A stretch of 32,000 nucleotides of DNA from Fibrobacter succinogenes subsp. succinogenes S85 (GTDB lineage Bacteria > Fibrobacterota > Fibrobacteria > Fibrobacterales > Fibrobacteraceae). Positions 7,649 through 29,330 of the stretch are shown one piece after another. The stretch covers positions 1,890,001 through 1,922,000 of the forward strand of contig NC_017448.1 of assembly GCF_000146505.1 (NCBI RefSeq), in the 5' to 3' direction. Every line of letters starts with the position of its first letter. Position 1 is the first letter of the stretch. Position numbers and translations under genes: made by a program. Below the pieces are notes generated by a model. The model was not told the origin of the DNA, did no database searches, and was given only the letters and a program-made list of their open reading frames with translations.

Positions 7649-7660
7649 TATTCCACCCCC

Positions 7661-14250: not shown

Positions 14251-14421
14251 TCAAGCCCCGTCCTCATTAAATATATGAAAAATCCCAAAAACGCAAAGAT
14301 TAATCGTAAAAACATGAGACAAGCGTCACAAAAACGCTGTTTTTTCAAAAAAAATCAATTTTTTTCACATTCAAGGCTGTCAATGCCTAAATTTGACAGC
14401 TACGAAAGATATATTGTAGCC

Positions 14422-17400
14422 ATGCTATATTTAAAATTCGCGCTTAATCTCGAAAATCTCGCCGATAAAATGATCGACGCCGTGTCCGATGCCTGGACAA
14501 ACCCGTTTGAAGCACCAGCTGTAATCTTCCCGGACCCGAAACTGGAACAGTGGTTCCGCCTGAAATGGGTGCAGAAAAAGAAATCGCTCATCGGGTTCAA
14601 ATCCATGATGATCGACCGTTTCCTCATGGAAATCCTCATCGGCGACGACACGCATAAGCAAAAATTGCACGCCGAAATGCTCCGAAACGTAATCCTCGCC
14701 CACCTCGTCAAGGAAACGGACGGAGTCCCGAACTATATGCGCATGGACGACGAAGTCAAGCGCTACCTAGTTATTGACAGAACACTCGACGAAACGCACC
14801 TTTTTGACTTTGCGAGCAAAATGGCATCGCTGTTCCTGGAATACGAGACAAGCCGCCCCAAGGATTTCATCCGCCGTGCCGACGGAAGTTCCGCCCCCGG
14901 TATCCTTGAAAAATGGAAGCAAGATCACCTTGACGACTTTTTTGGAATAGCAAACCACGACATCGCAAAGCGCGAAGCCTGGCAGCGCGAACTTTATTCC
15001 GCCATTTTCCACGAACACCAAGGTAAACCTTCATTATTGACGGAGGTCTTTGAAAACGAAGCAAAGCGCAAGGGGATTGAACGCACGGAATACTTGACGA
15101 TTCCCTACCTATATAAGGCATGCCAAGATGATAAAGGCAATGTCACATTCCACACGGAACACATTGGCAACACTCCGCTATTTATTTTCGGCCTTGGCGG
15201 TATGGGCCAGTTCTATCGCGTGATTTTGCAGAAATACGCCGAAACGCACGACGTTTACGCTTACATCCAAAACCCGTGCATGGAATTCTGGGAAGACACA
15301 TCGACTGTACACGACCAGAACGCCAACATCCACAGGAACTGGAAATCGCGCGACGGGCAATGGAAAGACAACGGCACAAGCCTTGACGACGTTCGCGAAA
15401 AGATGTCCGTTGACTATTCCAACGCAGGCGAAAGCACGGACGTTGACGACATTTCCGAATACAGCAACGAAGAAGCGGAAGCCGAAAACACGCTGCTCTG
15501 CAACTGGGGCCGTTCCGGCCGCGACAACATCAAGCTTTGGTGCCAAGCGGTCAATTACGATTTTGATTTCAGCATGAGCGGCCGTGAAGACGACAACCGC
15601 ACCGCCCAAGATCTTCCGCAAGACACGCTTTTGCACAAGGTGCAGTACGCGATTGCAAACCGAATCAACACGCTGCCAAACTTTACCGCAAGCGATTGCA
15701 AGGCGCGCGACTTTAGCCTTGACATCACCGCGGCACCGACCAAGATTCGTGAAATTGAAGCATTGCACACGAATATCAGCAAGCTCATGCAAAAGGGCGC
15801 ACGAGTGAACGACATTCTCGTCGTGTCGCCCGCCCTGGACGATTACCGCACCGCCATCAAGACGATTTTCGACCAGACACCTGAAAAGAAAAAATATGCC
15901 GGAGAAAACGAAAAAGAAGGCTTCTTGCACATTCCATTTGCCATCGTTGACTCCCCTGCCAGAAGCTCACTGACCGAAAACGTTCTAGACAACCTGTTTA
16001 CGATTCTTGAACAGGGAACCATCACACGCCCGACGTTCTTTGAATTGCTGCGCAACCCCGTCGTACAGCTGACACGCCACATTACCGATGAAGATGTCAG
16101 CAATTGGGAAAGCTGGATTGAAGCGACAAACATCTACCGCGACCGCGAGCAGAAAAAAGAAGACTGGATGAGCGGCGTACGCCGACTTCTCCTCGCCAAG
16201 ATGACAAAGAATCCTGTTGAATTTTCTGACGGTGAATTTCTGCCATACGCCGACATGGCGACAAGCGACAACAGTTCCCTTTGCAAGTTTGTAGAATGCA
16301 TTGAATCGCTCAAGAAGTGGATGGAATTTGCAGGTTGCAAGCAGAACGTAAAACACGAAATTGTTTGCGAAAATCGCATAGAAAACCTCGACAAGCTTTG
16401 CGATTTCATCAACGAATGGCTATCAATGGCAAGCTCTCCTGACGGATTTGCCAGCGAAAGAATCATCGTCAACGATGTCACGCAGAGCATCGAAGGTCTC
16501 CGCAACCAGATGGACGCTGGGCTACAAAGTATTTCATGGAAGGTAGTCAAGCAGACGCTCCTCAACGCTGCGCAATCATCCGCCTACAGTTGCGGCTCGC
16601 TGTTCGTCAATGGCATCACGTTCATGAACTTCATCCCGAACCGAATCATCCCTGTAAAGCACCTGTTCTTTATCGGTGGCGACTCCATGAACTTCCCTGG
16701 AGCAAAGCAGCAGAATACGCTTGACCTTCGCAAGTCTTGCCGACCGTGGCCGGGCGACGACTCGCCTATCGCCAAGCGCCGCTACGCGTTCCTCTGCCAG
16801 CTCATGAGCACAAGCGAAAGTTTCCACATCAGCTACGTGAATCAGGACATCCGCAAAGATGCCGAACTTTATCCGACCTCGGTCGTGAATGACATCCGAA
16901 AGTTCCTAGTCAATGCAGTCAACAGCAAAACTGATGTTTCCAACGAAAAAGTCAGCCAGTCCGACGCCTGGCCCGAAAACAAAATTTCGCTCGATGAGAC
17001 CCGCAGTTTTGAAGACTTGTTCACGCAAAAAAGCCTCCGCAACAAGCGTGCATTTCTCAACATGATGCAAGACGGATACGCCCATGCGAATCCGGAAACA
17101 GATGCCATAGAATCCGCAAGTAATAACATTACGGCAAAGCTCCCTGATCGCGTTTCAATCTACATGCTGAGCTCATTCCTGAAGGATCCGTTCCAGTTCC
17201 GTATCAGCCAGATGCTCGCCGACTCCGATTCAGAAGACCCAGAAAAGGAAATGTTCGAGCCCGTCCAGCTGGATGCCTTGAAAAAGAGTACACTACTCAA
17301 AATGACGCTCGCCGCAGAACTTTCAAACAAGTCCGACGAACTTGAAAAGTTCAAAAAGGAATCCAAGTTGAAAGGCGGAACACCCGACGGAATCTTTGGT

Positions 17401-18153
17401 GACAAGCTCTCTTCCGAAATTGAAGAGAACAAGAAAATCATTATGGACAACATGGGCGAAGCCCTTGTCAAAAAAATCAAGGAATCCTGGTGCTACCAAG
17501 CCAAAATTGAGGACATCCAGTTTGAACGTAGTGATTCGGAAAAATGGACCCTTTCGGGCTCGCTGGACTGGAGCGACAGCAGTGACCTTGGCAAGATTAC
17601 CGAGATGATTTCAATTACGTCGTCCAATAAAAAACCGACCATTGACAATTTCCTTACCCCTTACATCAGGGCTCTCGCAGTTATCGCCCAACGATCAAAT
17701 AAAGCCGAAATGGCAGAACAGGAACAAAGCATCAAGATTTCTGTTTTCCACAGTGAAAAGGGGAAAGACCCGACAACATCCACCGTCAAGATGACTCCAA
17801 AAAAGGCCACCGAGACTTTGCAGGAAATCTACACAGAAGCATTCGGCAGCGAAACGAGAAAACCTTACTTCAAGGCGGTTCCCGCAAAATTAACCGACAC
17901 AAACATGGACACGATCCGTACATACAAGGACAAACTTATCAACGGACCTTGGGAACACTTTGAAAAGAAAAAGCTATTTGACCCCACCACCGATGTAGGC
18001 TTCGAAGCTGACGATTTTACAAAACAGTGGGAAGAGGCGATAAAGATGATGAACGCCCTCACGCTTTTGTCAAAGGAAGCCTTTGAAAAAACAAAAAGCA
18101 AAAAAGAAAGCACAACCAGCAAGACAAGCAAGACTACGAAAAAGAAGGCATAA
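14422..18153 (+). CDS. recC: Exodeoxyribonuclease V gamma subunit RecC (about 1243 aa from this start)
   Basis: The N-terminus MLYLKFALNLENLADKMIDAVSDAWTNPFEAPAVIFPDPKLEQWFRLKW parallels the E. coli RecC N-terminus as I remember it (ML.VYHSN.L...DPFEPE.ILVQS.GM.QWL). The size fits, and the gene ends 2 nt before recB. The track ORF begins at 14227 inside the divergent promoter region. ATG 14383, preceded by AAGG, is an alternative start. Confidence 0.88.
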   Translation: MLYLKFALNLENLADKMIDAVSDAWTNPFEAPAVIFPDPKLEQWFRLKWVQKKKSLIGFKSMMIDRFLMEILIGDDTHKQKLHAEMLRNVILAHLVKETDGVPNYMRMDDEVKRYLVIDRTLDETHLFDFASKMASLFLEYETSRPKDFIRRADGSSAPGILEKWKQDHLDDFFGIANHDIAKREAWQRELYSAIFHEHQGKPSLLTEVFENEAKRKGIERTEYLTIPYLYKACQDDKGNVTFHTEHIGNTPLFIFGLGGMGQFYRVILQKYAETHDVYAYIQNPCMEFWEDTSTVHDQNANIHRNWKSRDGQWKDNGTSLDDVREKMSVDYSNAGESTDVDDISEYSNEEAEAENTLLCNWGRSGRDNIKLWCQAVNYDFDFSMSGREDDNRTAQDLPQDTLLHKVQYAIANRINTLPNFTASDCKARDFSLDITAAPTKIREIEALHTNISKLMQKGARVNDILVVSPALDDYRTAIKTIFDQTPEKKKYAGENEKEGFLHIPFAIVDSPARSSLTENVLDNLFTILEQGTITRPTFFELLRNPVVQLTRHITDEDVSNWESWIEATNIYRDREQKKEDWMSGVRRLLLAKMTKNPVEFSDGEFLPYADMATSDNSSLCKFVECIESLKKWMEFAGCKQNVKHEIVCENRIENLDKLCDFINEWLSMASSPDGFASERIIVNDVTQSIEGLRNQMDAGLQSISWKVVKQTLLNAAQSSAYSCGSLFVNGITFMNFIPNRIIPVKHLFFIGGDSMNFPGAKQQNTLDLRKSCRPWPGDDSPIAKRRYAFLCQLMSTSESFHISYVNQDIRKDAELYPTSVVNDIRKFLVNAVNSKTDVSNEKVSQSDAWPENKISLDETRSFEDLFTQKSLRNKRAFLNMMQDGYAHANPETDAIESASNNITAKLPDRVSIYMLSSFLKDPFQFRISQMLADSDSEDPEKEMFEPVQLDALKKSTLLKMTLAAELSNKSDELEKFKKESKLKGGTPDGIFGDKLSSEIEENKKIIMDNMGEALVKKIKESWCYQAKIEDIQFERSDSEKWTLSGSLDWSDSSDLGKITEMISITSSNKKPTIDNFLTPYIRALAVIAQRSNKAEMAEQEQSIKISVFHSEKGKDPTTSTVKMTPKKATETLQEIYTEAFGSETRKPYFKAVPAKLTDTNMDTIRTYKDKLINGPWEHFEKKKLFDPTTDVGFEADDFTKQWEEAIKMMNALTLLSKEAFEKTKSKKESTTSKTSKTTKKKA

Positions 18154-18155
18154 CT

Positions 18156-21100
18156 ATGGAAAATTTCAGTCTTAACAAATTCGACCCATCCCAAAGCCTC
18201 TTCATCGAAGCCTCGGCTGGCACGGGCAAGACATATACCATCCAGTTGATGGTTTCCAAGCTCATAAAGCTTGGCACACCGCTCAAAAAAATCCTGATTG
18301 TCACGTACACCGAAAAAGCGGCCGGAGAACTCAAAGACCGTATTCGTAAAAAAATAGACGAAGTCCTCATAAACCGAAAAATTGACAAAAGCGATGATTC
18401 CGAGGAGCCGCTCAGCGACGCAAAAATCGCGCTGTTCACGAAAGCCTACCAGGATGTCGACAATGCCGCCATTTTCACCATCCATTCCTTCTGCCAAAAG
18501 GCGCTCAAGGAATTCGCCTACGATGCAGGCCGTCCATTTAACATGTCCATGATAGACGACAAGGAAGTTAATGACCTCATTGAAAAGTTCATTCGTGACA
18601 ACTGGAGTGAAGACGAGGAATTCAAAGCATTGTTGGTCAATGCAGAAAAGACATCTTCTTTAATAAATAAGTTAAAGGACTTATTCACCAAAGCCATCAA
18701 CGTCTACAAAGGCAAGAATGACAATGGAGAAGAAATCATCAAGCTTGAATCCCCAAGCATAGAATGGGGCGAGGACTGCATCAGCAAAGAAGAGGCAGAA
18801 GCACTTTTAGAAAAAGATATTGTTGATTTTGAAAGTCTGAAAAAATTTAAAAAGTTCTATAGCAACGTCCAAATTCTTGAAAAGGACGAGAACAAGGACA
18901 AGATATACTATTCCGAAGAAATCTCAAGTGGTGAAAAAGCGATTTCCGATTTGCTCAACACCATTCATACTTGGGATTCATCCACCAAAAACCCATTCAC
19001 TCCAACAAAAATAGGGAAAAACATTACCGATGTTCCCAATGATGAATTTGGAAACGCTTTAAAGTACGTCCACGAAAGAATTTCAAAACTGAGCAAGATC
19101 AAAGAAGCGCTCCAGGAAGAGCTCGACTCCTACCCGCTGAAGAAATTCCTTTTTGACCACATACCCGAACTATTTGACGAATGGCAAAAATACAAGACCG
19201 ATATGAAAGCACAGTCGTTCAACGACATGATTCTCTCGGTCCATCAAGCCGTACTTGATAAAAGCAAGGGGGAATCCCCACTCAAGACAAGACTTCGCGC
19301 GCAATACACCTACGCCATTATTGATGAATTCCAAGACACGAACCAGCTGCAATGGGATATTTTCAGCGCCGTCTTTGACAAGATTTTTGTCGTGGGCGAC
19401 CCGAAACAGTCCATTTACAGTTTCCAGGGCGCCGATGTGAACGTCTACCAGAAGGCGATTCAAAAAATCAACAACGGCATGTCTTTAAAGACAAACTTCA
19501 GATCGACAAAAGGCATCATTGATGGATGCAATGATCTTTTCAACGACAGCTTTTTCAAGCCCTACGAAGGTTCACCCAAGCTCGTTGATTTTGAAAGTTC
19601 ACTCTCACCAGATAAAGAAGGCCAGGTCAAGGCGTTGCCACAAATCAACGGCAAAGAAGTCGCCCCAATTTGGATTAGCCAACAAAATATCGATGAAATT
19701 GATTTCGCCCAGGCCACCGTCCAAAAAATTGTAGAATGGTGTTCCTTTGTTGGCGACAAGACCGTTTTGCAGGTCTTTGACAAAAAAGACTGCACCAAGC
19801 TCAGGAACGTTTCCTTCAAGGATTTTGCAGTACTCGCAAGAACTCGAAGCGAAATGGATGAAATCGAGGACGCCATGCGCGCAGCCGGCGTTCCATTCAG
19901 CCGCTACAAGGACAGCAATCTTTTCAGCAGCCGAGAATGCACCGAATGGATTGCGCTATTCAAAGCCATTGACGCGCCCGACTTTTCGGCATGGAACAGA
20001 CGCCTCTTGAGCGAAGCCCTCATCACGGACTTCTTCAGAATTTCTTATCAAGAAATTGAATATGTCGAAAGCGAAGCGTTTGACGACCCCGAAAATCCAG
20101 TCCGTAAAAAAATCAATTCCTGGCATGAGCTCGTCCAAAAACGCCGCTACGCCGAAATGCTCGAACGTATTTACAGCGATACGCAAATCGAAGAACGACT
20201 GACAGAAATTTCCAAATTGCAGAACTTGGCAAAACTCCGCCAAATCGGCAACTACGCGGTTGAATATCTCTACAACCACAACTGTTCTATCGAAGATCTC
20301 GTACGCCACCTAGAAGCTCTTGCCAGCTACAACGCAGGCACCGATGACGAAGACGGCAACCTCATTGAAAAGAGTACCGACTATGATGCCGTACAAATCA
20401 TGACAATTCACGCTTCGAAAGGTCTTGAATTCCCGATTGTCATTTCCGTTGCTGGTTTCAAGCAAAAAATCAAAACCGATTCCGGTCCATTCCTCTATCA
20501 TGACAAAGACGAAATCCGGCTCGGTTTCGGAAGCATCGCCAAGAAACGTCGCGCTCAAGAAGAACTCGAAGAATGGAAACGACTCTTCTACGTTGACTTC
20601 ACACGTGCATCGTCCATCTTGATTCTGCCACGATACGAAAAGTGGTACGGCAAAGACAATGTCAAGGAAGAATTCAAGTTCCTAGAAAGTTCCATAAACG
20701 AGCTCATCAAAGCTGACGAAAAACGCGATTCCGATAAAAAGCTGACGACCGTCTTGCCCAAGCTTGAAAAATGGGAACCGAAAAAACTCAGTGATGACGT
20801 CAAGACAAAAATTCTCAAGCCGCTCAACGAAAAATCTGGAGCAGGCGCGGTTTTGACGAGCGAAGAAATCGCTCAAAACATAGCCCAGCAAAAAATCAAC
20901 ATGGCAAGCTTGCAGAAAAAACTCGCAGGTGCAAGCATCATGCAGCATTCATACAGTACGCTTTCTGGAAAGGCGGATTCGCAAATTGAATCCGATGACG
21001 GCAATAGACCCGACCGAGACGATGAAGAAAAAACGGCAGCAAAAACATCCACCGTCAAAATTCGTGACATCGACACGGAAGCAAAAAACTGTACGACAGC

Positions 21101-21956
21101 ATTCAACCCAAAGCTCAATTACCAGACGAACTTGAACGAAACTGCGAAAAAATTCCCGCGTGGTTCGCACGCCGGTAACGCGCTCCACCGCATTTTCGAA
21201 AACACCAAGTTCAAGCAGTTCGGCGAAGAAAACTCAACTTTTGAACAGGCTCTCGCCAACCCAAAGACGATCAACCTCATCGAAGAAGAGTTCAAGCGCG
21301 AATCGCTCCCCATCTGGAATCATCGCGAAGCTTGGCTTGACATCGCCACGCACTACACCTGGAACACGCTAAACGCAAGGTTGCCGGAAATCGCAGGCAG
21401 CACGACGACATCGGAGACATTCGCACTTACCGACATTCCCGAAAATGACCACATGCCAGAAGTACAGTTCAACCAGGACGCCTCCGAAGAGACCGACGAA
21501 AATCAAGCAATCTCTGAAACTAGCGCAAGCGACATCCTCAGGCGTTTCTGCAAGGGCTTCATAGACTTGCTATTCGTCCGCACCGTAAACAGTCAAAAGT
21601 ACTACTCCATTCTCGACTGGAAATCGGACATGCTCGAAAACAACGTCTACACGCCCGAAGCGCTCAAAGAAAAAGTCGATAACGACTACTCCATCCAGCG
21701 CGTCCTTTACAGCTACTGCCTGATTCAATGGCTCAAGCAGTTCTACGGCAAAGGCACCACCGAGAATTTGAGCGAAGCTGAAATTTTTGAAAAACACTTT
21801 GGCGGCATCTATTACGCGTTCATCCGCGGCACCGAAGGTGGCACCCCCAAGGGCATTTACGCACAAACTTGGAACAGCTTCGGCGAACTTGAAAAGGCCT
21901 ACCAAAAAGTTAAAGATCTCATGAGCAAGCCCTCCATCGTTAAGGAGGAAAAATAA
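18156..21956 (+). CDS. recB: Exodeoxyribonuclease V beta subunit RecB (UvrD-type helicase plus C-terminal PD-(D/E)xK nuclease, 1266 aa)
   Basis: Walker A is LFIEASAGTGKTYTIQ and Walker B is YAIIDEFQDTNQLQW. Further helicase motifs are GDPKQSIYSFQGAD and MTIHASKGLEFPIV. The C-terminal nuclease motifs are GFIDLLFVR...YYSILDWKSD...YSIQRVLY. Confidence 0.95.
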   Translation: MENFSLNKFDPSQSLFIEASAGTGKTYTIQLMVSKLIKLGTPLKKILIVTYTEKAAGELKDRIRKKIDEVLINRKIDKSDDSEEPLSDAKIALFTKAYQDVDNAAIFTIHSFCQKALKEFAYDAGRPFNMSMIDDKEVNDLIEKFIRDNWSEDEEFKALLVNAEKTSSLINKLKDLFTKAINVYKGKNDNGEEIIKLESPSIEWGEDCISKEEAEALLEKDIVDFESLKKFKKFYSNVQILEKDENKDKIYYSEEISSGEKAISDLLNTIHTWDSSTKNPFTPTKIGKNITDVPNDEFGNALKYVHERISKLSKIKEALQEELDSYPLKKFLFDHIPELFDEWQKYKTDMKAQSFNDMILSVHQAVLDKSKGESPLKTRLRAQYTYAIIDEFQDTNQLQWDIFSAVFDKIFVVGDPKQSIYSFQGADVNVYQKAIQKINNGMSLKTNFRSTKGIIDGCNDLFNDSFFKPYEGSPKLVDFESSLSPDKEGQVKALPQINGKEVAPIWISQQNIDEIDFAQATVQKIVEWCSFVGDKTVLQVFDKKDCTKLRNVSFKDFAVLARTRSEMDEIEDAMRAAGVPFSRYKDSNLFSSRECTEWIALFKAIDAPDFSAWNRRLLSEALITDFFRISYQEIEYVESEAFDDPENPVRKKINSWHELVQKRRYAEMLERIYSDTQIEERLTEISKLQNLAKLRQIGNYAVEYLYNHNCSIEDLVRHLEALASYNAGTDDEDGNLIEKSTDYDAVQIMTIHASKGLEFPIVISVAGFKQKIKTDSGPFLYHDKDEIRLGFGSIAKKRRAQEELEEWKRLFYVDFTRASSILILPRYEKWYGKDNVKEEFKFLESSINELIKADEKRDSDKKLTTVLPKLEKWEPKKLSDDVKTKILKPLNEKSGAGAVLTSEEIAQNIAQQKINMASLQKKLAGASIMQHSYSTLSGKADSQIESDDGNRPDRDDEEKTAAKTSTVKIRDIDTEAKNCTTAFNPKLNYQTNLNETAKKFPRGSHAGNALHRIFENTKFKQFGEENSTFEQALANPKTINLIEEEFKRESLPIWNHREAWLDIATHYTWNTLNARLPEIAGSTTTSETFALTDIPENDHMPEVQFNQDASEETDENQAISETSASDILRRFCKGFIDLLFVRTVNSQKYYSILDWKSDMLENNVYTPEALKEKVDNDYSIQRVLYSYCLIQWLKQFYGKGTTENLSEAEIFEKHFGGIYYAFIRGTEGGTPKGIYAQTWNSFGELEKAYQKVKDLMSKPSIVKEEK

Positions 21957-21957
21957 T

Positions 21958-24078
21958 ATGGAAAACAAAATACTCGCTATAGAATCAATTGACGATTTCA
22001 TTGAAGACCTCATTGAAATGCGCGGGCTCGTTCCGCTTGACAAGCACTTGCTCCACCTGCTTTTTGAAATCAAGAGCGACATTCCACTCCATACACGAAA
22101 ATTCCTGACGCTCTGTATGTCGCTCCTTGACGACGGCAACACACGCGTTCCGCTAGACGCAGCGCAGTTCACGGACATGTGGACCCGCAAATGGAACGGC
22201 CTCGTGATGCTCCGCGTCAGCACTGCCGAAGAAGATATTGACGAAAACGCCTTTGCAACCGCAGACGATTTTGCAAGCATCATCAGCGAAGGCATTCAAG
22301 ACATCTTGACTAACGACTTTTCCGCCATCATGGAAAGCCGCGAGACCGACACAGAATCCGCCGAAGACTCCTTGAGCAAGCCGTTCATTCTCGCCAAGCG
22401 CCCGAACGGAACACACCTCTATTTCACTAAGCACTTTGACGCCAAATGCGTGATTGAAAAAGCGGCGAATATTTTGTTCAAAAACGGTCGCAAGCCAAGC
22501 AAAGACGAAATTGCGCAGTGTACTGAAAAAGTAGCCAATATGTGCAAGCTTAAAGACGGCAAAAAGTTCATCATCAAGGAACGCCAAGCCGAAGCCATCA
22601 TCCGCGGACAAACAGAAAACCTCGTCGTTACAGGTGGCCCGGGTACCGGCAAGACAACCGTCGTTCTCTACATTCTGTGGAACCTGCTCGCAAGCCATAG
22701 CGAAATGCTTGACTGGAACATCTATCTTGCAGCTCCGAGCGGCAAGGCAGCCGACCGCATGCGCGAAAGCCTTGTCGGTGGTCTCTCAAATATTCTTGAC
22801 GAACAAAAGACCGGCGATAACGAGCGTATTTTCCGCAAGCTGAACGAACTCGAAAGCAGCACCATCCACCGTCTGCTCCGATTCTCTAGAAGCAAAGGTT
22901 GCTTCACTTTCAACCGCAAAGAACAATTCCCAAAGAATTCAATCTTCGTCATTGACGAAGCGAGCATGATTGACATCGAAATGTTCGCGGCCCTCCTTGA
23001 AGCCATTCCCGAAGGCGCACGCATATTCATCCTCGGTGATTCATTCCAGCTCCCTTCTGTTGATTCCGGCGCCGTCCTCGGCGAAATCTTGAAAGTGCAA
23101 TCCGGCAAGAATTTTTCCGTCAAGCTCAACGAATCCAACCGCTTTGACGACCGTTCAAACATCGGTAAACTCGCTGCAGAAATCAAGGAAGTTGCCGAAT
23201 GCAATGACAGCAACAAGTTCGTCCCTCACAAATTTACCATTACCGGCGAAGAACCCGTTTCCGAAAATGAAAACACTTCGTTCCCAGAATTCAAGGATAA
23301 AGTTCTTTACAAATGTCTTGAAACAGACGACAAGCCGCTTACAAAAAAAGAAGAGGAAAAGCTCATCGAATCGTTCATTGGCAAATGGTCTGAAGAATTC
23401 GCTAAGCTCCCCGAACTCGCCGAGCAAATCAACCCGCAACGCACCGGCATTGAAGCAGATGACCCCGATAAAATTGAAACAAAACGTCGCAATGACATTT
23501 GGCGACTTTCGTTGACAAAACGAATCCTCTGCGCCGAACGTCGTGGCCTCCGAGGCATTGAAAACATCAATAAAAAAGTTTGTTCTAAAATCAAGAGCCT
23601 CTGGCGCACCAAAAAGAAAAAAGAAGGCAAAACAGTCCAATGGGACGACTCCGGTTACTTCCCCGGACAGCTCCTGATTATCACCAAGAACCAGGAAATG
23701 TTCAAACTCTACAACGGCGACACGGGAATCGTCGTCTTTGACGGCAACACCCCCTGCCTCATGCTCAAAAAAGCGGCTCCGCATAGAAAGGATCTCCAAA
23801 AGACCCGCGACGACTATGTATTCTACCCCCTCTCGGTCCTCCCCGAAGATTCCATCTCAACAGCGTTTGCCATCACCATACACAAGTCACAAGGCTCCGA
23901 GTACAATCACGTGACCATGTTCCTGCCGACCAAAATCGGCCACCCCCTCCTCACCAACCAAATCATCTACACAGGCATCACCCGTGCCATGGAGAGCGTC
24001 ACCATCATAGCAAACGATGACACATTCAGAGCCGCCGTCACCACCGTCAGCGAGCGCGATACGGGAATTTCGCTATAG
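21958..24078 (+). CDS. recD: Exodeoxyribonuclease V alpha subunit RecD (706 aa)
   Basis: An AGGAGG RBS sits inside the recB 3' end, and the start codon is 1 nt after the recB stop. Motifs present: LVVTGGPGTGKTTVV, IFVIDEASMID, FILGDSFQLPSVDSGAVLGE, AFAITIHKSQGSEYNHV, IYTGITRA. Confidence 0.95.
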   Translation: MENKILAIESIDDFIEDLIEMRGLVPLDKHLLHLLFEIKSDIPLHTRKFLTLCMSLLDDGNTRVPLDAAQFTDMWTRKWNGLVMLRVSTAEEDIDENAFATADDFASIISEGIQDILTNDFSAIMESRETDTESAEDSLSKPFILAKRPNGTHLYFTKHFDAKCVIEKAANILFKNGRKPSKDEIAQCTEKVANMCKLKDGKKFIIKERQAEAIIRGQTENLVVTGGPGTGKTTVVLYILWNLLASHSEMLDWNIYLAAPSGKAADRMRESLVGGLSNILDEQKTGDNERIFRKLNELESSTIHRLLRFSRSKGCFTFNRKEQFPKNSIFVIDEASMIDIEMFAALLEAIPEGARIFILGDSFQLPSVDSGAVLGEILKVQSGKNFSVKLNESNRFDDRSNIGKLAAEIKEVAECNDSNKFVPHKFTITGEEPVSENENTSFPEFKDKVLYKCLETDDKPLTKKEEEKLIESFIGKWSEEFAKLPELAEQINPQRTGIEADDPDKIETKRRNDIWRLSLTKRILCAERRGLRGIENINKKVCSKIKSLWRTKKKKEGKTVQWDDSGYFPGQLLIITKNQEMFKLYNGDTGIVVFDGNTPCLMLKKAAPHRKDLQKTRDDYVFYPLSVLPEDSISTAFAITIHKSQGSEYNHVTMFLPTKIGHPLLTNQIIYTGITRAMESVTIIANDDTFRAAVTTVSERDTGISL

Positions 24079-24149: not shown

Positions 24150-24854
24150 ATGGCAACAATCAAAGAACTCAAAGCAAATGGCGCCCCGCGTTTCAAAGTC
24201 CCGGGCAAAGAAGAAATCTACGACGCATTCGACCAGTTCCTCGCAGAGAACTTCCTCGGTGAAACCGTCGAAGCCATCCCCGCAGCACCGGCCAACGGCG
24301 AATTCGCTCCGCAGGCAGTCGCCCTCTACGCCATCGCCAACACCGGCAAAGGCAACGCAGGTCTCTGGAAAGCAGGCACCGGTACGTCCTCCAAGAACTG
24401 GGACCTCAGCTTTTTGCAGGGCATCCTGAACCAGTTCTCCACCCTCCCGGCAGCCACCCGCGGCAAGACCGTTTCCGAAATCAAGGAACAGCTCGAAGAC
24501 TTCGCCTCCAAGAAGTTTGCAAAGAACCCCGCAAACGCCCGTAACGGACTTTTGCACCTCTGCAACCCGAACATCTATACCCCGATCTATTCTTTTGCAG
24601 ACAAACTCGCCATCTGCAAGGAACAGTCCCGCCTGCTTGAAGACTTCAAGCTTTCCAAGCGCTGGGACAGCGGCCTCTTGAAGCTCAAGGTATTCCGCAA
24701 GGACGGTTACGTCGCCATCCAAACCGACGAACAGCTCTGCTGGATTTTTGACAAACTCTCGACCATGCACAAAATCGAAGACGAAGAATTCGAAGTCTTC
24801 ATGAAGAACTACTTCACCGCTCCGAAAAAGAGCACCGCAAAGAAGAAGCAGTAA
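24150..24854 (+). CDS. Hypothetical 234-aa protein with a lysine-rich C-terminal tail; no family recognised
   Basis: The RBS is AAAGGAAG. GC-rich third positions match the surrounding core genes. The product runs MATIKELKANGAPRFKV...TAPKKSTAKKKQ. A strong terminator follows directly. The overlapping minus ORF 24081..24770 has G/V/F/E-rich antisense-type composition. Confidence 0.8.
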   Translation: MATIKELKANGAPRFKVPGKEEIYDAFDQFLAENFLGETVEAIPAAPANGEFAPQAVALYAIANTGKGNAGLWKAGTGTSSKNWDLSFLQGILNQFSTLPAATRGKTVSEIKEQLEDFASKKFAKNPANARNGLLHLCNPNIYTPIYSFADKLAICKEQSRLLEDFKLSKRWDSGLLKLKVFRKDGYVAIQTDEQLCWIFDKLSTMHKIEDEEFEVFMKNYFTAPKKSTAKKKQ

Positions 24855-24873: not shown

Positions 24874-24903
24874 ATCGCCCGCAATTACGCGGGCGATTTT
24901 TTG
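24874..24903 (+). terminator. Rho-independent terminator closing the recCBD/orf234 transcription unit
   Basis: A perfect 9-bp GC-rich stem ATCGCCCGC / GCGGGCGAT (24874-24882 and 24889-24897) encloses a 6-nt loop. It is followed by TTTTTT. Confidence 0.8.
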
Positions 24904-25095
24904 TATCGTTAAGCGATAACATTATTATTTTTTCACTACTATACATAAATAGACCTTATGTTTTTTCGCCTTTTTCATTGGTATATAGTGATTTAATTGA
25001 ATTTTTTCAACATCATATTTCAGCCTTATTATTTAAATAAAGTATATTAATTCTAAAAAAGCTTCATTTCTACTATTTTCAGTATTTTAAAACAT

Positions 25096-26784
25096 ATGTC
25101 CTCAAATGATAAGAAATCAAATCCTTATCTCATTTACGCTCTTGACATCAACGGAAAACCAGTACACATCGATAGCGTACCGAATGGTTTTTCCTGCAAT
25201 TGCAAATGTCCTCATTGCAGTGGTAAACTACAAGCTAAAAACGGAGGTACAGAAAGAGCCCATCATTTCGCTCATAATGATGGAGCCGATTGTAAAGGAG
25301 CGGTTGAATCAGCAATACATTGCTTGGCAAAAGAGATTTTAAAGGAATCTTTATGTGTTATGCTACCCAAGAATGCGGGTGAATTACAATTCAACAAAGT
25401 CGAAACAGAAAAGAACTTCCCTGAATTGAAGTTAAGACCTGATTGCGTTGGATATTATGGAGAAAAAACACTTTGGATTGAATTTAAACGAACTCATGAG
25501 GTTGACGTCCACAAAGCCGGCAAGATTATTTCCGCTCGCATAAATTGTATTGAAATAGATTTAAACAGTTGCGGTCAAGATAAAGAAAAATTGCGAGAAT
25601 TTATCACACAAAGTTTTGAAAATCGAAAATGGATATATAGCAGGGAACACGGAGTGGGTTCATCGGAACATACCGTTTCTAATCGTAATTCTTCCCCAAA
25701 GGTTGATTCTGAGTTAGGATTAGTAAAATTAGACCGTCATTTTGCCATAGATGATAAGGGGAAATTAATTGATTTTAGAGAGCCCTCAGAATTTGACGCA
25801 AACAAGCACTCCTATTATTGTCCATGCTGCGGAAAAGAAGTTGTGTTGAAAGTTGACGATAACGGCAGCTACACATTTGATCATATAGAAGAAACAAACA
25901 TTTGCAAAGATGAAATGTATTTAAGAAGTGCTGCTGTATCAGCCATCCAAAAGGCTTTTGAAAACTCAAAGAGTTTTATAATTCACCTTCCTCAATATCG
26001 TTCTTGCAAAAATGATAACAAATGTCCATATTATCAAGAGTGTCAAATCCCTACAACACAGCAATATGATTTAAAATCACATCATTTTGATAAATATACA
26101 AAGGATTACAAATTTAACGATGTTGCATACAGTACAGACTTAGTCCTATACAGAGAAAACATACAGAAGAACTCCATTGAAGTTCGTGTTAATACGGAAA
26201 ATTTAGAATATGGACAGAATTCTCCACGTCGCACAATTGATATCACGATATACAATGAGAACGATGTACATCAATTAAAAAAAGGATTATCCGATTACAA
26301 GAATGTTCATTTCACGAACTTCGCTCCTTACGCAGAAAAAAAAGCGGAACCCACAGAAATCAACCATAACATTTGGAAATTCATTATTTACACAAGTGGA
26401 AAAATCTATATAGGTCCTGCCAGATGTACAGAATTATCAAATTCATTTAATAATTCAAACACAATAAAAGAAGGAGCATTCATAAGAACAAACAACATTA
26501 AAGAAGATATGTACATTTTTCTTCTATTGTACTACAAAAAACTGCAAAAAGATATTTGTCGCTGTCAATTATGTTGGTCTCTAAAAAAAACAAACGGCAT
26601 TAATAACAATTACATTTGCACACGATACAAAACAAAAGGAACGCCCAAACATCCGCTGCAAGAAAAGAATCCTCCTAAAGAATGCCCTTATTTCAAAGCG
26701 GATTTCAACATTTTAAAGCGAGAAAAAGAATTGATAGAAAAAATGAAAATAGTGGAGTTTCAAAACATTCCGCAAAATAAATAA
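25096..26784 (+). CDS. 562-aa protein with two tandem zinc-ribbon plus CoiA-like PD-(D/E)xK nuclease modules and a Cys-rich C-terminal region
   Basis: Module 1 (aa ~30-156) reads C34xC36xC38PHC41...AHHFAH(55-60)...C66...ES(71-72)..H75..AKEIL...RPD116...WIE129FK131...CIEIDL. This matches the CoiA-family pattern (CPxC...HFAH...C...ES.EH...PD...E.Q/K). Module 2 (aa ~240-366) reads YYC242PC244C245GKEV...YTFDH(260-263)...C270...IHLP...STD348LVLY...IE362VR364. The tail carries C488xC490xxC493...C508...C530. The gene is very AT-rich compared with its flanks. Confidence 0.85.
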   Translation: MSSNDKKSNPYLIYALDINGKPVHIDSVPNGFSCNCKCPHCSGKLQAKNGGTERAHHFAHNDGADCKGAVESAIHCLAKEILKESLCVMLPKNAGELQFNKVETEKNFPELKLRPDCVGYYGEKTLWIEFKRTHEVDVHKAGKIISARINCIEIDLNSCGQDKEKLREFITQSFENRKWIYSREHGVGSSEHTVSNRNSSPKVDSELGLVKLDRHFAIDDKGKLIDFREPSEFDANKHSYYCPCCGKEVVLKVDDNGSYTFDHIEETNICKDEMYLRSAAVSAIQKAFENSKSFIIHLPQYRSCKNDNKCPYYQECQIPTTQQYDLKSHHFDKYTKDYKFNDVAYSTDLVLYRENIQKNSIEVRVNTENLEYGQNSPRRTIDITIYNENDVHQLKKGLSDYKNVHFTNFAPYAEKKAEPTEINHNIWKFIIYTSGKIYIGPARCTELSNSFNNSNTIKEGAFIRTNNIKEDMYIFLLLYYKKLQKDICRCQLCWSLKKTNGINNNYICTRYKTKGTPKHPLQEKNPPKECPYFKADFNILKREKELIEKMKIVEFQNIPQNK

Positions 26785-26847: not shown

Positions 26848-28284
26848 ATGACTAAAGAAGAAATTTTAGCGGGAGAATCCGAAATACTCGAATTTAAGAG
26901 GGACATTCCCGAGCAGAGTATCAAGTATATGAAAACCGTTGTCGCCTTTGCCAACGGCAAAGGCGGAACAATTGTATTTGGCGTAGATGACAAAACTCGC
27001 AAGGTCGTCGGCATAAAGAAGGTCGAAGTGTTTCAAAAGGCAGATGCTATTGCTGACGCCATCTTCAATAGCTGCGAACCAAAAATCAGACCCAACATCA
27101 ACCTTCAGGAGATTGATAAAAAGTACATCATTGTTGTTACAATTCCCGTAGGCATGCAGCAACCCTACTACATAAAAAGTATGGGCATCACGGATGGAAC
27201 TTTCGTCCGTGTCGCAGCCACAACGCGTGAAGCTGAGCGTTATATGCTCAAGGAATTGGTTCTTGAAGGGAATAACGAATCATTTGACCAACAGCCCATT
27301 GGCGAAAAAGTCGCAAAAGAAGAAATCGACGAACTATGCGATAAAATTTATGATTTCACTTCATCTTCTCTGAGCAAAAAAGAACGTCTCGCTTTGCGTA
27401 GACCAACCGTCAATCAACTACAATCGTGGAAATTGCTGAAGAAAGACGGGCGATCTTTGGTAGCAACTAACGGATTTCGGCTTTTGCAGGGAAACGCCGA
27501 AGAATATTCCGATGCAAAGATTCAATGTGCGGTATTTAAAGGGACAACGCGAGGCGACTTTTTGAAGCGTCAAAATATGGAAGGTCCGATTTTTGAACAA
27601 ATTGAAGCCGCGTATCAGTTCGTAATACAAAATCTTCCTGCTCAATCCGAAGTGAAAGGGCTGTTTCGTCACGAAAAATATGCTTTGCCAGAAGCAGCGA
27701 TCCGTGAAGTTATCGCTAACGCAGTATGCCATCGCAGCTATTTGATCCCCCGAAAAATACAGGTCGCTTTGTATGACGACAGGTTGGAAGTCACATCTCC
27801 AGGAACGCTAAACAAGGATATCACATTGGAAAAAATGCGTGAGGGAATGTCAAGCGTTCGTAATAAAGGCATTGCCGAAGCGTTCATTTACATGCGTATC
27901 GTAGAAACTTGGGGTAGCGGCATTCCAAATATTTTTAAAGCCATGCAAGAATACAACTTGCCAGAACCTGAAATGCAAGATTTTCATGGCGATTTCAGAA
28001 TAACTCTTTCGTGGGACAGAAAGCTACCCAATCCTACCCAATTCCTACCCAATCCTACCCAATTCCTACCCAATCCTACCCAATATAGCGAAAAAGAGCT
28101 TTTGATTCTCCACGCCCTCAAAAATACCCCATCTATAACGCAAGGAGAACTGGCTCAATCATTGGGAATGGATACAAATCAAATAAAGTATTATCTTAAC
28201 AAACTTAAGAACGGCTCAAATCCAGCAATCCGTCACATTGGTACAACACGTAACGGATATTGGGAAGTGTTAATAGAAATCTAG
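26848..28284 (+). CDS. AlbA_2 (Schlafen-type) / HATPase_c_4 / winged-HTH protein, the family often annotated as a putative DNA-binding or RecG-like ATP-binding transcriptional regulator (478 aa)
   Basis: The N-terminus GESEILEFKRDIPEQSIKYMKTVVAFANGKGGTIVFGVDDKTRKVVGI matches the AlbA_2 pattern. The segment EAAIREVIANAVCHRSYLIPRKIQVALYDDRLEVTSPGTL...VRNKGIAEAF...VETWGSGIPNI matches the HATPase_c_4 pattern. The C-terminal wHTH is LLILHALKNTPSITQGELAQSLGMDTNQIKYYLNKLK...RNGYWEVL. The RBS is AAAGGAA. The gene starts 63 nt after the previous gene with no hairpin in between. Confidence 0.9.
   Translation: MTKEEILAGESEILEFKRDIPEQSIKYMKTVVAFANGKGGTIVFGVDDKTRKVVGIKKVEVFQKADAIADAIFNSCEPKIRPNINLQEIDKKYIIVVTIPVGMQQPYYIKSMGITDGTFVRVAATTREAERYMLKELVLEGNNESFDQQPIGEKVAKEEIDELCDKIYDFTSSSLSKKERLALRRPTVNQLQSWKLLKKDGRSLVATNGFRLLQGNAEEYSDAKIQCAVFKGTTRGDFLKRQNMEGPIFEQIEAAYQFVIQNLPAQSEVKGLFRHEKYALPEAAIREVIANAVCHRSYLIPRKIQVALYDDRLEVTSPGTLNKDITLEKMREGMSSVRNKGIAEAFIYMRIVETWGSGIPNIFKAMQEYNLPEPEMQDFHGDFRITLSWDRKLPNPTQFLPNPTQFLPNPTQYSEKELLILHALKNTPSITQGELAQSLGMDTNQIKYYLNKLKNGSNPAIRHIGTTRNGYWEVLIEI
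28024..28084 (+). repeat. Perfect 21-nt tandem repeat, 2.9 copies, in frame, encoding (L)PNPTQF repeats in the linker before the wHTH
   Basis: The unit ctacccaatcctacccaattc occurs at 28024-28044 and 28045-28065, followed by a 19-nt partial copy at 28066-28084. Each unit is itself two copies of a CCTACCCAAT(T) sub-repeat. The translation is KLPNPTQFLPNPTQFLPNPTQY. Confidence 0.95.
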
Positions 28285-28389: not shown

Positions 28390-28430
28390 AGCGCGTCATT
28401 CCGTAAAAAGGAATGATGCGCTTTTGCTTT
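28390..28430 (+). terminator. Rho-independent terminator for the 25096-28284 two-gene unit
   Basis: A 12-bp stem GCGCGTCATTCC / GGAATGATGCGC (28391-28402 and 28410-28421, one G-U pair) encloses a 7-nt loop. It is followed by TTTTGCTTT. Confidence 0.7.
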
Positions 28431-28490
28431 ATTTGGCTTTGCCATATTGCAAGGGCGCTCCCAGCAAAAATAATAAACACAGGAGACCCT

Positions 28491-29330
28491 ATGACTAAAA
28501 AAGAAGTTACCACTTATTCTCAGCAGACGTTTGAAAAACTCAAGCACATTGATGAAAACGGGAATGAATTTTGGTACGCAAGAGAACTGCAAAAAGCCTT
28601 AGAATATACCGAATATGGCAAGTTTCTACCTGTGATAGAAAAGGCTATCGAAGCATGTCGGAAAACTGGCTTTGATGAGGGAAACCATTTCGCCCACGTG
28701 AGCGAGATGGTCAGAATCGGAAGCGGAGCAGAAAGAAAAATGGATAGCTACAAACTTTCCCGTTACGCTTGCTACCTGATTGTAATGAACGGGGACCCTC
28801 GCAAAGAAGTAATCGCTCTTGGACAAACATATTTCGCTGTTAAAACTCGTCAAAAGGAAATTTCTGATGAAGTCGCACAACTTTCGGAAGATGAAAAACG
28901 CCTAGCCATCCGTGACGAAGTAACGATTCGCAATAAATTCCTTGCCAGCTCCGCAAAAGCTGCCGGCGTCGAAACGCCCGTGGATTATGCTGTATTTCAG
29001 AATCGTGGATATCAGGGTCTTTATAACGGCTTGGGAATGAAGGATATCCACAAACGCAAAGGACTTAAGAAAAACGAACAAATACTGGACCACATGGGAG
29101 CTACAGAGCTTGCTGCAAATCTTTTCCGCATTACACAAACCGACGACAAACTCCGTCGTGAAAACATCAAGGGAAAAGAATTGGCAAATGAAACACATTT
29201 TGCCGTGGGCAAGAAAGTTCGCCAAACTATTGCTGAACTTGGCGGAACAATGCCAGAAAACCTACCCACTCCCAAGATCAGTGCCAAAAAGTTGAAACAG
29301 GAACGCAAGAAAGCCATTGCGAAGAAATAA
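28491..29330 (+). CDS. dinD: DNA-damage-inducible protein D homologue (279 aa)
   Basis: An AGGAG RBS lies at 28481-28485. The product resembles E. coli DinD, as I remember it, over its full length: NGNEFWYARELQKALEYTEYGKFLPVIEKAIEAC, KLSRYACYLIVMNGDPRKEVIALGQTYFAVKTR, FQNRGYQGLYNGLGMKDIHKRKGLKKNEQILDHMGATELAANLFRITQT, VGKKVRQTIAELGGTMPENLPTP. The track start at 28413 lies inside the upstream terminator, so I rejected it. Confidence 0.9.
   Translation: MTKKEVTTYSQQTFEKLKHIDENGNEFWYARELQKALEYTEYGKFLPVIEKAIEACRKTGFDEGNHFAHVSEMVRIGSGAERKMDSYKLSRYACYLIVMNGDPRKEVIALGQTYFAVKTRQKEISDEVAQLSEDEKRLAIRDEVTIRNKFLASSAKAAGVETPVDYAVFQNRGYQGLYNGLGMKDIHKRKGLKKNEQILDHMGATELAANLFRITQTDDKLRRENIKGKELANETHFAVGKKVRQTIAELGGTMPENLPTPKISAKKLKQERKKAIAKK

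Follow-up and report, generated by a model that had tools for sequence, protein, structure and literature searches.

Two zinc-ribbon and nuclease-like modules, the second apparently degenerate, in a single-chain protein of Fibrobacter succinogenes

The pairing of an active nuclease fold with a degenerate homologue, leaving one active site per assembly, is a familiar theme, exemplified by XPF-ERCC1, Mus81-Eme1, the tandem-repeat archaeal tRNA-splicing endonucleases and the heterodimeric R.BspD6I. Here we describe a protein that appears to combine both kinds of partner within one chain. It is encoded in a 32,000-nucleotide (nt) stretch of the genome of Fibrobacter succinogenes subsp. succinogenes S85 (NC_017448.1, positions 1,890,001 to 1,922,000), hereafter the window, to whose positions all coordinates refer. 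The gene, referred to below as the target, is a complete open reading frame (ORF) on the forward strand (25096 to 26784) with an ATG start, specifying 562 amino acids (aa) plus a stop codon, as judged from the ORF list, its homologues, an AlphaFold2 (AF2) model and its GC content. As in the known pairs, a degenerate homologous fold appears to be retained for architecture and substrate positioning. In contrast to them, and with no detectable sequence relation, the two halves are covalently fused, a zinc ribbon is present in each of them, and the chain ends in a Cys-rich tail; chains of a splicing endonuclease and of the R.BspD6I small subunit were present in the fold-search list. What is new is thus not the pairing itself but its occurrence as an internal active/dead duplication, with extra putative metal sites, in an unmodelled PD-(D/E)xK family.

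CoiA, described in Streptococcus pneumoniae and Bacillus subtilis, is a Bacillota-restricted competence protein and D-loop resolvase (bioRxiv 10.1101/2024.02.06.579203) with the canonical active site PD-E-x-Q (PMC1189080). Like CoiA, the target has a Cys/His ribbon of the form C-P-x-C ... H-F-A-H, a PD-(D/E)xK-type core with an Asp on strand beta-2 and a Glu on beta-3, and a C-terminal extension. It differs in having two modules instead of one, a tail that is Cys-rich, E-x-x-x-T-H ... K140 in place of PD-E-x-Q, and a distribution in Fibrobacterota and Bacteroidota, in defence islands or as isolated insertions, as opposed to the Bacillota and their competence regulon. A CoiA-domain protein that emerged from an experimental screen for anti-phage systems (Vassallo et al. 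2022, PMC9519451) sets a precedent for a CoiA-type domain in a phage-protective protein, although there is no indication of two modules or of the present tail in that protein.

Duplication of the ribbon and nuclease module

The target reads as two consecutive modules and a tail, all on the forward strand. Module 1 consists of a zinc ribbon (aa 9-66; 25120 to 25293), recognized by the Pfam CoiA_N match at aa 37-67 and by invariant Cys and His residues, and a PD-(D/E)xK-type core (aa 67-185; 25294 to 25650), defined by invariant residues, secondary structure and fold searches and predicted to be active. An inter-module linker (aa 186-210; 25651 to 25725), disordered according to the predicted local distance difference test (pLDDT) and unconstrained at a mean pairwise identity of 0.17, leads to module 2. 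This comprises a second ribbon (aa 211-270; 25726 to 25905), with matches to Pfam CoiA_N, DUF7830 and DUF7828 and an hhalign match to ribbon 1, and a degenerate nuclease-like domain (aa 271-410; 25906 to 26325), identified by homology, by the model and by a table of equivalent residues drawn up via standalone relatives. The C-terminal Cys-rich tail domain (aa 411-562; 26326 to 26781) is marked by conserved cysteines and an R-Y-K-T-K-G-T-P motif. An earlier note on this DNA had proposed, from the sequence alone, that an entire zinc-ribbon plus nuclease module occurs twice in the chain. Checked against the translation, all the residues it named are at their positions (H56-H57-F58-A59-H60, E71/H75, D116, E129-F-K131, C242-P-C-C245, F261-D-H263 and E362-V-R364, with cysteines C304/C310/C316 and C488/C490/C493/C508/C530), and the nucleotide ranges of both copies convert correctly.

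The proposal of a duplicated module is borne out by profile-profile alignment (hhalign) at two levels, the family and the superfamily. CoiA_N (PF25164) matches the target in two stretches, for a combined 40.1 bits (gathering score 26.3), and the halves taken separately score 22.2 and 25.0 bits. In the family alignment, A1, which holds 62 sequences and to which all counts out of 62 refer, the profile of aa 1-195 could be aligned to the aa 196-410 profile (93.7 %, E 1.9e-7; 112 columns), spanning the ribbon, the first helix and the chain up to the strand that carries D116, which pairs with D348; the two ribbons alone aligned at 94.3 % (E 1e-7). The alignment extended across the whole module when 68 single-module relatives of module 1 were combined into a profile and set against standalone proteins of the module-2 type (99.7 %, E 5.2e-27, 146 columns). 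Here the ribbon and the entire nuclease core corresponded motif for motif, with G-E-T-Y-L-H, A-D-L-L, I-E-I-K-V-T-H and I-I-E-I of the standalone proteins facing V-E-S-A-I-H, P-D-C-V, I-E-F-K-R-T-H and C-I-E-I of module 1, and with the equivalents of E105 and K140 also paired. Only one large difference separated the two module types: about 25 residues, rich in Cys, are inserted in the module-2 type. The same standalone proteins served to map module 1 positions onto module 2.

Pairwise comparison was far less sensitive. With BLASTP, the N-terminal 192 aa gave no significant match to the remainder of the target, indicating that the duplication is old and that profiles are needed to see it. Once the ribbons were removed, nuclease 1 and nuclease 2 of the target family aligned at only 10.9 % by hhalign, as would be expected if one of the copies has decayed. 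Both results, together with the lack of any Foldseek match below E 0.15 for module 2 alone, are also what one would see if the second module were a chance Cys/His resemblance to a ribbon followed by an unrelated fold at aa 271-410. That reading is, however, already contradicted by the module-2 hidden Markov model (HMM), which finds the standalone proteins at 1e-37 to 1e-42, by the alignment of those proteins with the module-1 superfamily across the core, and by the residue equivalence table. Moreover, the order of secondary-structure elements is identical in the two modules and the list of PDB structures retrieved with module 2 consists mostly of PD-(D/E)xK folds. We therefore give chance resemblance next to no credence and regard it as highly probable that the protein contains two homologous modules of which the second is catalytically dead.

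Catalytic residues, metal ligands and structural models

Module 1 is the most conserved part of the protein (mean pairwise identity 0.60-0.64; core, 0.60) and was found to have the complete catalytic set with which it had been credited. In its ribbon, C34, C36, C38, C41, H56, F58, H60 and C66 are invariant in the family (62/62) and H57 is present in 59; in the core, E71, H75, E105, D116, E129, K131, H134, K140 and E153 are all invariant. Much of this pattern is shared by the 68 single-module relatives, in which C34, C36, C38, C41, H57, F58, A59, H60, C66 and C151 are invariant or nearly so and H75, E105, D116, E129, H134, K140 and E153 occur in 66 to 68 sequences, D116, E129 and K140 without exception. 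K131, in contrast, is variable in these relatives (R in 24, K in 11, A in 9, L in 7). The superfamily signature is accordingly P-D ... E-x-x-x-T-H ... K rather than a classical E-x-K, with K140 as the invariant lysine. Taking E-x-K as the expected CoiA signature, as was done initially, is thus mistaken on both sides, the canonical CoiA site being PD-E-x-Q. In a direct test for a PD-(D/E)xK site, the Asp of beta-2, the Glu of beta-3 and the Lys are all present in module 1, which is predicted to be an active nuclease. For its metal ligands we propose a CCHC site formed by C38, C41, H60 and C66; C34, C36 and H57 may form a second site with C151.

Module 2 presents a different picture. It retains the CCHC zinc site (C242, C245 and H263 in 62/62, C270 in 61/62), while the putative second site of module 1 is lost, H238 and Y240 taking the places of C34 and C36. 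The equivalent of D116, D348, is kept in 60 of the 62 sequences. The equivalent of E129, position 362, is I or V in 39 and E in only 13; position 364 (K131) is K in none; position 367 (H134) is H in three; and position 373 (K140) is D or E in 57 and K in a single sequence, a reversal of charge. In terms of the PD-(D/E)xK test the catalytic Asp is kept, and the Glu and Lys are not. Since the standalone module-2-type proteins preserve GETYLH, ADLLL, IEIKVTH and the lysine, module 2 is a decayed copy of a once-active nuclease. It is nonetheless still under selection, its ribbon and core having mean pairwise identities of 0.46 and 0.37, against 0.17 in the linker. The equivalence table and these identities uphold the view of a second copy that is catalytically degenerate yet maintained. 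They do not uphold the significance attached to E362-V-R364 as a replacement for E-x-K: with I or V prevailing at 362 and K never found at 364, this triplet of the window protein is an accident of its lineage and not a conserved remnant. The losses that matter are those of the E129, H134 and K140 equivalents.

Two considerations tell against this view of the second module. Structure searches with module 2 by itself lend it statistically weak support (see below); and D348, together with acidic residues that remain at positions 273 (50/62) and 337 (47/62), may allow residual metal binding or some activity. In its strongest form the latter argument would make both modules active, module 2 by means of a rearranged site (e.g., D272/E273, D337 and D348 with K327 or R379), and the protein a two-site double-strand cutter. 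The candidate residues are indeed conserved (besides D348 and the acidic positions 273 and 337, D272 in 55/62 and K327 and R379 in 60/62 each), and migration of the catalytic Lys or Glu is well documented in PD-(D/E)xK families (PMC1189080). However, K327, part of a "YDLK" motif, and R379 are equally conserved in standalone relatives that have the canonical set, and are therefore not replacement catalytic residues. Hydrophobic residues at the beta-3 Glu position in 39 of 62 sequences, an acidic residue in 57 at the position of the invariant lysine, the absence of the His in 59, and an evolutionary rate much higher than that of module 1 (identity 0.37 versus 0.60) also speak against a second working site, and we judge a doubly active enzyme to be improbable.

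The additional Cys clusters that had been noticed in the sequence are real and conserved. Between core strands 1 and 2 of module 2, a Cys-rich insertion (26005 to 26097, forward strand), a presumed metal site, contains C304-x5-C310-x5-C316, each in 62/62. Most family members (57/62) have a fourth Cys, at position 334, but the window protein has Tyr there (nt 26095-26097), and its metal site may therefore be altered or lost. The insertion is also found in the active standalone module-2-type proteins and is absent from module 1. In the tail, C444, C488, C490, C493 and C530 are invariant and C508 is found in 61/62; C444, C490-x-x-C493, C508, C530 and K-T-K-G-T-P recur in standalone module-2+tail and module-1+tail proteins. 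Pfam gave no match for the tail alone, and the idea that it might be a third, degenerate copy of the module was rejected, hhalign giving less than 1 % against either module. Going by the number of potential ligands, the protein could bind metal at as many as five sites, of which each module would have two and the tail one.

A PD-(D/E)xK core with four conserved cysteines is also a feature of the Fe-S nucleases Cas4, AddB and Dna2; in the Cas4/AddB type these hold a [4Fe-4S] cluster that staples the nuclease domain. In Cas4, one Cys precedes the core and three follow it, whereas the target's cysteines (C-x5-C-x5-C ... C) are inserted between core strands and the fourth is missing from the window protein (Y334). 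Cas4 SSO0001 (4ic1) was among the top structural matches of module 2, at a non-significant E of 0.26.

The AF2 model of the whole chain, computed with the family alignment, has a mean pLDDT of 86.7 and a predicted template modelling score (pTM) of 0.76, and comprises two globular modules joined by a disordered linker (aa 188-208; pLDDT below 50 at aa 188-196 and 199-208), and a C-terminal domain. The pTM suggests a defined arrangement of the domains despite the disordered linker. Modelled alone, module 2 gave a pLDDT of 90 and a pTM of 0.87. In both modules, four short strands of the ribbon are succeeded by a long helix, a beta-sheet, a further helix and a final strand. No single match was significant in Foldseek searches of the PDB, the lowest E values being 0.29 with the whole model and 0.15 with module 2 by itself (template modelling score of at most 0.26). 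Both lists are, however, made up almost entirely of PD-(D/E)xK proteins, including RecU/PrfA, Hjc, EcoRV, HincII, BsoBI, Bax1, Can2, Cas4 SSO0001, TnsA and the influenza PA endonuclease; the searches report no aligned residues, and the lists are used qualitatively only. Among predicted viral structures (BFVD), five matches were significant (E 7e-6 to 5e-5, probability 1.00), one of them bearing the name "Competence protein"; after these came DUF2726, VRR-NUC, Vsr-like, UL24 and "restriction enzyme" proteins. When alignments A1, A2 and A3 were used as sequence profiles against the PDB, nothing significant came back, the lone match being 6qvv ("RNA-dependent RNA polymerase") at E 1.5. We take the PD-(D/E)xK fold, with its alpha-beta-beta-beta-alpha-beta core, as established for the protein as a whole. 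For module 2, with its non-significant matches, a nuclease fold is indicated mainly by homology to module 1 and to the active standalone relatives.

A modular superfamily and its relation to CoiA

The two-module architecture, which had been thought unusual, is not a one-off. It is conserved in at least 218 clusters at 90 % identity, nearly all of them full-length at 550-580 aa and ranging down to 36 % identity, within a superfamily of 7,894 representative proteins at E <=1e-3 (987 at E <=1e-30). Among the top 144 superfamily representatives, 71 consist of module 1 alone with diverse C termini, about eight of module 2 plus tail (full-length, 330-365 aa) and three of module 1 plus tail (e.g., P0156). 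Longer combinations also exist, such as P0122 (781 aa; L074 306-2651), which has module 1, module 1, module 2 and tail, and P0212 (725 aa), which is a doubled module 2 plus tail and seems to retain the catalytic residues in both copies. On the most economical view, a module-1 unit would have been fused ahead of a module-2+tail protein and the second active site would have been lost thereafter. A split pair that would represent the separate partners, i.e., a module-1 gene beside a standalone module-2+tail gene, was sought and rejected: in L075 the neighbouring gene encodes an unrelated 266-aa protein with a signal peptide, and no module-1 gene is present in L073.

Among reference genomes the closest relatives (60-63 % identity) are in Fibrobacter and the Fibrobacteraceae, with others at 35-43 % in Prevotella, Segatella, Bacteroidales and Alistipes; module-1-only relatives extend to the Flavobacteriia, Cytophagia and Alphaproteobacteria. 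The only members labelled Clostridia/Oscillospiraceae, in L019 and L037, lie on 3.5-kb contigs of metagenome-assembled genomes (MAGs) that carry a Prevotellaceae cassette (small protein, 69 % identical). These contigs are probably mis-binned, making the presence of the family in Bacillota doubtful.

Our data thus point to a large and essentially unannotated nuclease superfamily, represented in databases by no more than a zinc-ribbon model of 50 residues, whose members string together one to three copies of a ribbon-plus-nuclease unit and may or may not carry a conserved Cys-rich tail. The two-module family also illustrates cleanly how nature converts an enzyme domain into a pseudo-enzyme once it has been fused, since proteins of the ancestral, still active type can be set beside it. 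Nothing was found in a literature search on DUF7828, DUF7830 or the two-module architecture.

Whether these proteins belong with CoiA depends on which part of the module is considered. The earlier designation as CoiA-like holds for the ribbon, CoiA_N being matched by 61 of the 62 family members and by all 68 single-module relatives, but fails for the nuclease core. The target core matches no Pfam nuclease model, and CoiA_nuc (PF06054) does not match the target even at E <=10; one of the 62 family members reaches E 0.07, and none of the 68 single-module relatives or of 10 proteins with other architectures matches. An attempt to bridge module 1 to CoiA_nuc through the single-module relatives failed accordingly (0/68). 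When tested for PD-E-x-Q, module 1 shows P115-D116 ... E129-F-K131-R-T-H134 ... K140, and Q never predominates at the position of the x-K lysine. On account of the missing PF06054 match, the missing PD-ExQ signature, and the different taxonomy and regulon, the target is not filed as CoiA.

A true CoiA orthologue, i.e., a recombination or competence endonuclease that resolves D-loops in the course of repair or natural transformation and sits beside recBCD for that reason, would account for the CoiA_N ribbons and the viral structural match called "Competence protein", and one relative does bear the NCBI name "competence protein CoiA family protein". The target also lies about 1 kb downstream of recC-recB-recD (14227-24078, forward strand). 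This adjacency is, however, unique to the window, RecD having no match in 75 related loci, and a meaning of the recBCD proximity was rejected on that ground; a terminator and an unrelated gene also intervene. CoiA_nuc is unmatched in the target and in 129 of the 130 relatives scanned, the active-site variant is unlike the canonical one, and CoiA is confined to Bacillota whereas the family occurs in Fibrobacterota and Bacteroidota. A gene of low GC content, patchy occurrence and variable context is likewise unlike a core recombination gene, and about 10 inspected contexts contained no competence genes. Orthology with CoiA is, on this evidence, quite improbable. The annotation "competence protein CoiA family" in Fibrobacter and Bacteroidales is hence misleading and in need of correction, the proteins more likely being defence-island nucleases.

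Genomic context and proposed role

About 10 contexts were inspected for defence association and 75 loci were fetched for comparison of neighbours. In the window, the target is followed by a gene with SLFN_AlbA_2, HATPase_c_4 and HTH domains (26848-28284) and by a Bro-N gene (28413-29330; PADLOC PDC-S13), and then by hsp20, cobW and fur. Against PADLOC-DB v2.0.0, these neighbours match SLFN/pAgo-associated models and PDC-S13, and the target matches no family at E <=0.1. The Bro-N gene is 93 % identical to its counterpart in F. succinogenes MAG contigs and 83 % to that of a Fibrobacteraceae MAG (loci L009-L011, L044 and L012), yet in the F. succinogenes contigs identity falls to just 63 % for the target homologue, and the island is otherwise made up differently; the larger MAG island comprises SIR2 + HerA, AAA_15/21, NERD, the target homologue, a 108-aa ORF, RAMA/DUF4357, an SLFN-like gene and Bro-N. 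This pattern points to a Bro-N-anchored hotspot with exchangeable defence cargo. Another close homologue adjoins a Gabija-like pair (AAA_15/OLD-TOPRIM + UvrD) with a PLD nuclease, NERD and YhcG, the homologues in these Gabija-like and SIR2 + HerA islands having 63-70 % identity to the target. One further homologue is beside AIPR + HNH and one beside AAA_15/21 + DUF4435.

Two upstream genes recur in Bacteroidales and are absent from the window. An Xre-type HTH_3/HTH_19 gene (~155-166 aa) lies directly upstream of the family gene in several Bacteroidales loci (L070 5529-6029, with an overlap of 29 nt; L028, L029, L041 and L027; L003 5126-5593) and overlaps the start of the gene in about six, an arrangement that calls to mind the controller proteins found in restriction or toxin systems. 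A small signal-peptide protein of ~132-158 aa, missing also from the Fibrobacter clade, is encoded immediately upstream of the two-module gene in at least seven Bacteroidales-type loci (L003 5599-5997, L005 5696-5992, L016, L017, L019, L020 and L037) and also precedes the standalone module-2+tail gene of L073 (4336-4812). Its C terminus repeats "GRFxLYPTxNxYTFIxxD...WQVQW...R..RIY". A search for a universal partner among NERD, the 108-aa ORF, RAMA/DUF4357, SLFN, Bro-N, the Xre-HTH gene, the small secreted protein and AIPR found each of them to be clade specific.

The target gene itself is the lowest-GC part of the window (0.34-0.35 versus ~0.47 in the flanks). The 234-aa gene upstream is closed by an intrinsic-terminator-like feature on the forward strand (24874 to 24907), with a strong hairpin at 24874-24897 whose 9-bp stem has 7 G-C pairs and is followed by the T-run TTTTTGTATC. 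An AT-rich spacer of ~190 bp (24908 to 25095, forward strand), read directly from the sequence, then separates this from the target; it presumably contains the target promoter and has one sigma-70-like match (25004-25032), matches of this kind being not enriched over shuffled sequences. Given the low GC content, the upstream terminator and the AT-rich spacer, the target looks like an independent, horizontally acquired transcription unit.

On balance, we consider that the target probably encodes a stand-alone, horizontally mobile defence-island nuclease of an uncharacterised superfamily, built as an intramolecular active/dead pseudo-dimer. A defence-type nuclease is favoured over a competence factor because of the defence-island contexts, the lack of a universal partner, the window-only RecBCD adjacency, the restriction of CoiA to Bacillota and the anti-phage precedent for a CoiA domain; that its role is defence against phages or other mobile DNA, and not natural competence, we would nevertheless put at about even chances. 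Several observations weigh against it. NCBIfam, PADLOC and PHROGs scans gave no match for the target, the PADLOC release being v2.0.0 (2023), in which the presence of a model for the Vassallo et al. system was not confirmed. No relative was found by tblastn among 50,697 phage records, and no conserved partner such as a methyltransferase or immunity gene was seen. Several homologues stand alone among housekeeping genes (a cbi operon, glycan-utilisation genes, a rotamase gene), so that, as judged on the ~10 contexts, association with defence islands is not universal.

The same single-gene insertions within housekeeping operons could betray a selfish or mobile-element nuclease, of the homing type or serving as a weapon between elements, that spreads as a one-gene cassette. 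The low GC content of the gene, its variable cargo surroundings at a conserved hotspot, the two-gene cassette with the small signal-peptide gene in at least seven Bacteroidales loci, the presence of a group I intron endonuclease and a homing endonuclease among the viral structural relatives, and the location of L001 near a terminase with an inserted LAGLIDADG domain all fit such an origin. However, no intron or intein context was seen, the inspected loci showed no integrase, transposase or flanking repeats adjoining the gene, phage records and PHROGs contributed no relative, and the strongest contexts are classical chromosomal defence islands. A purely selfish nuclease is thus a minority possibility, though one to be taken seriously.

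If the defence-island nuclease is the correct interpretation, the following course of events may be envisaged. A complete module 1 would have been fused ahead of a module-2+Cys-rich-tail protein, after which module 2 would have lost the catalytic Glu, His and Lys while keeping its ribbon, its Cys-rich insertion, the first metal-binding Asp and the tail. Module 1 would be the only catalytic centre, carrying out metal-dependent phosphodiester cleavage, and module 2, packed against it, would act as the non-cutting second protomer of a dimer-like DNA-binding platform. Recognition of the substrate or trigger would probably fall to module 2 and the tail, the latter offering a further metal-stabilised surface for contact with nucleic acid or trigger. 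One active site per molecule would imply nicking or branch-/structure-specific cleavage rather than symmetric double-strand cutting. More speculatively, and with clearly less confidence, we suggest a hitherto unrecognised single-gene system against phages or other mobile DNA, in which a fused active/dead pseudo-dimer, guided by a multi-metal Cys-rich sensor tail, makes asymmetric cuts (nicks or branch-specific cuts) in the replication or recombination intermediates of invading DNA. This would put to defensive use the chemistry that CoiA applies to D-loops and would make the superfamily of ~7,900 proteins a large reservoir of modular nucleases. With a defence role, the protein would represent a compact single-gene system from gut and rumen anaerobes and might offer a naturally asymmetric, possibly nicking or structure-specific, nuclease scaffold.

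Elsewhere in the window, sbcC-sbcD (4100-8977, reverse strand) and recCBD, the two major machines for processing double-strand breaks, are both encoded within 20 kb, with a 1503-aa hybrid histidine kinase/response regulator between them. The orphan 234-aa ORF between recD and the target (24150-24854), which has its own terminator and a host-like GC content of 0.49, gave no match in Pfam, PADLOC or PHROGs and has no homologue in the 75 fetched loci. In the downstream SLFN_AlbA_2 gene, a perfect 21-bp tandem repeat of 2.9 copies (28024-28084) encodes LPNPTQF three times between the HATPase_c_4 and winged-helix parts, and may be a contingency or linker-length locus.

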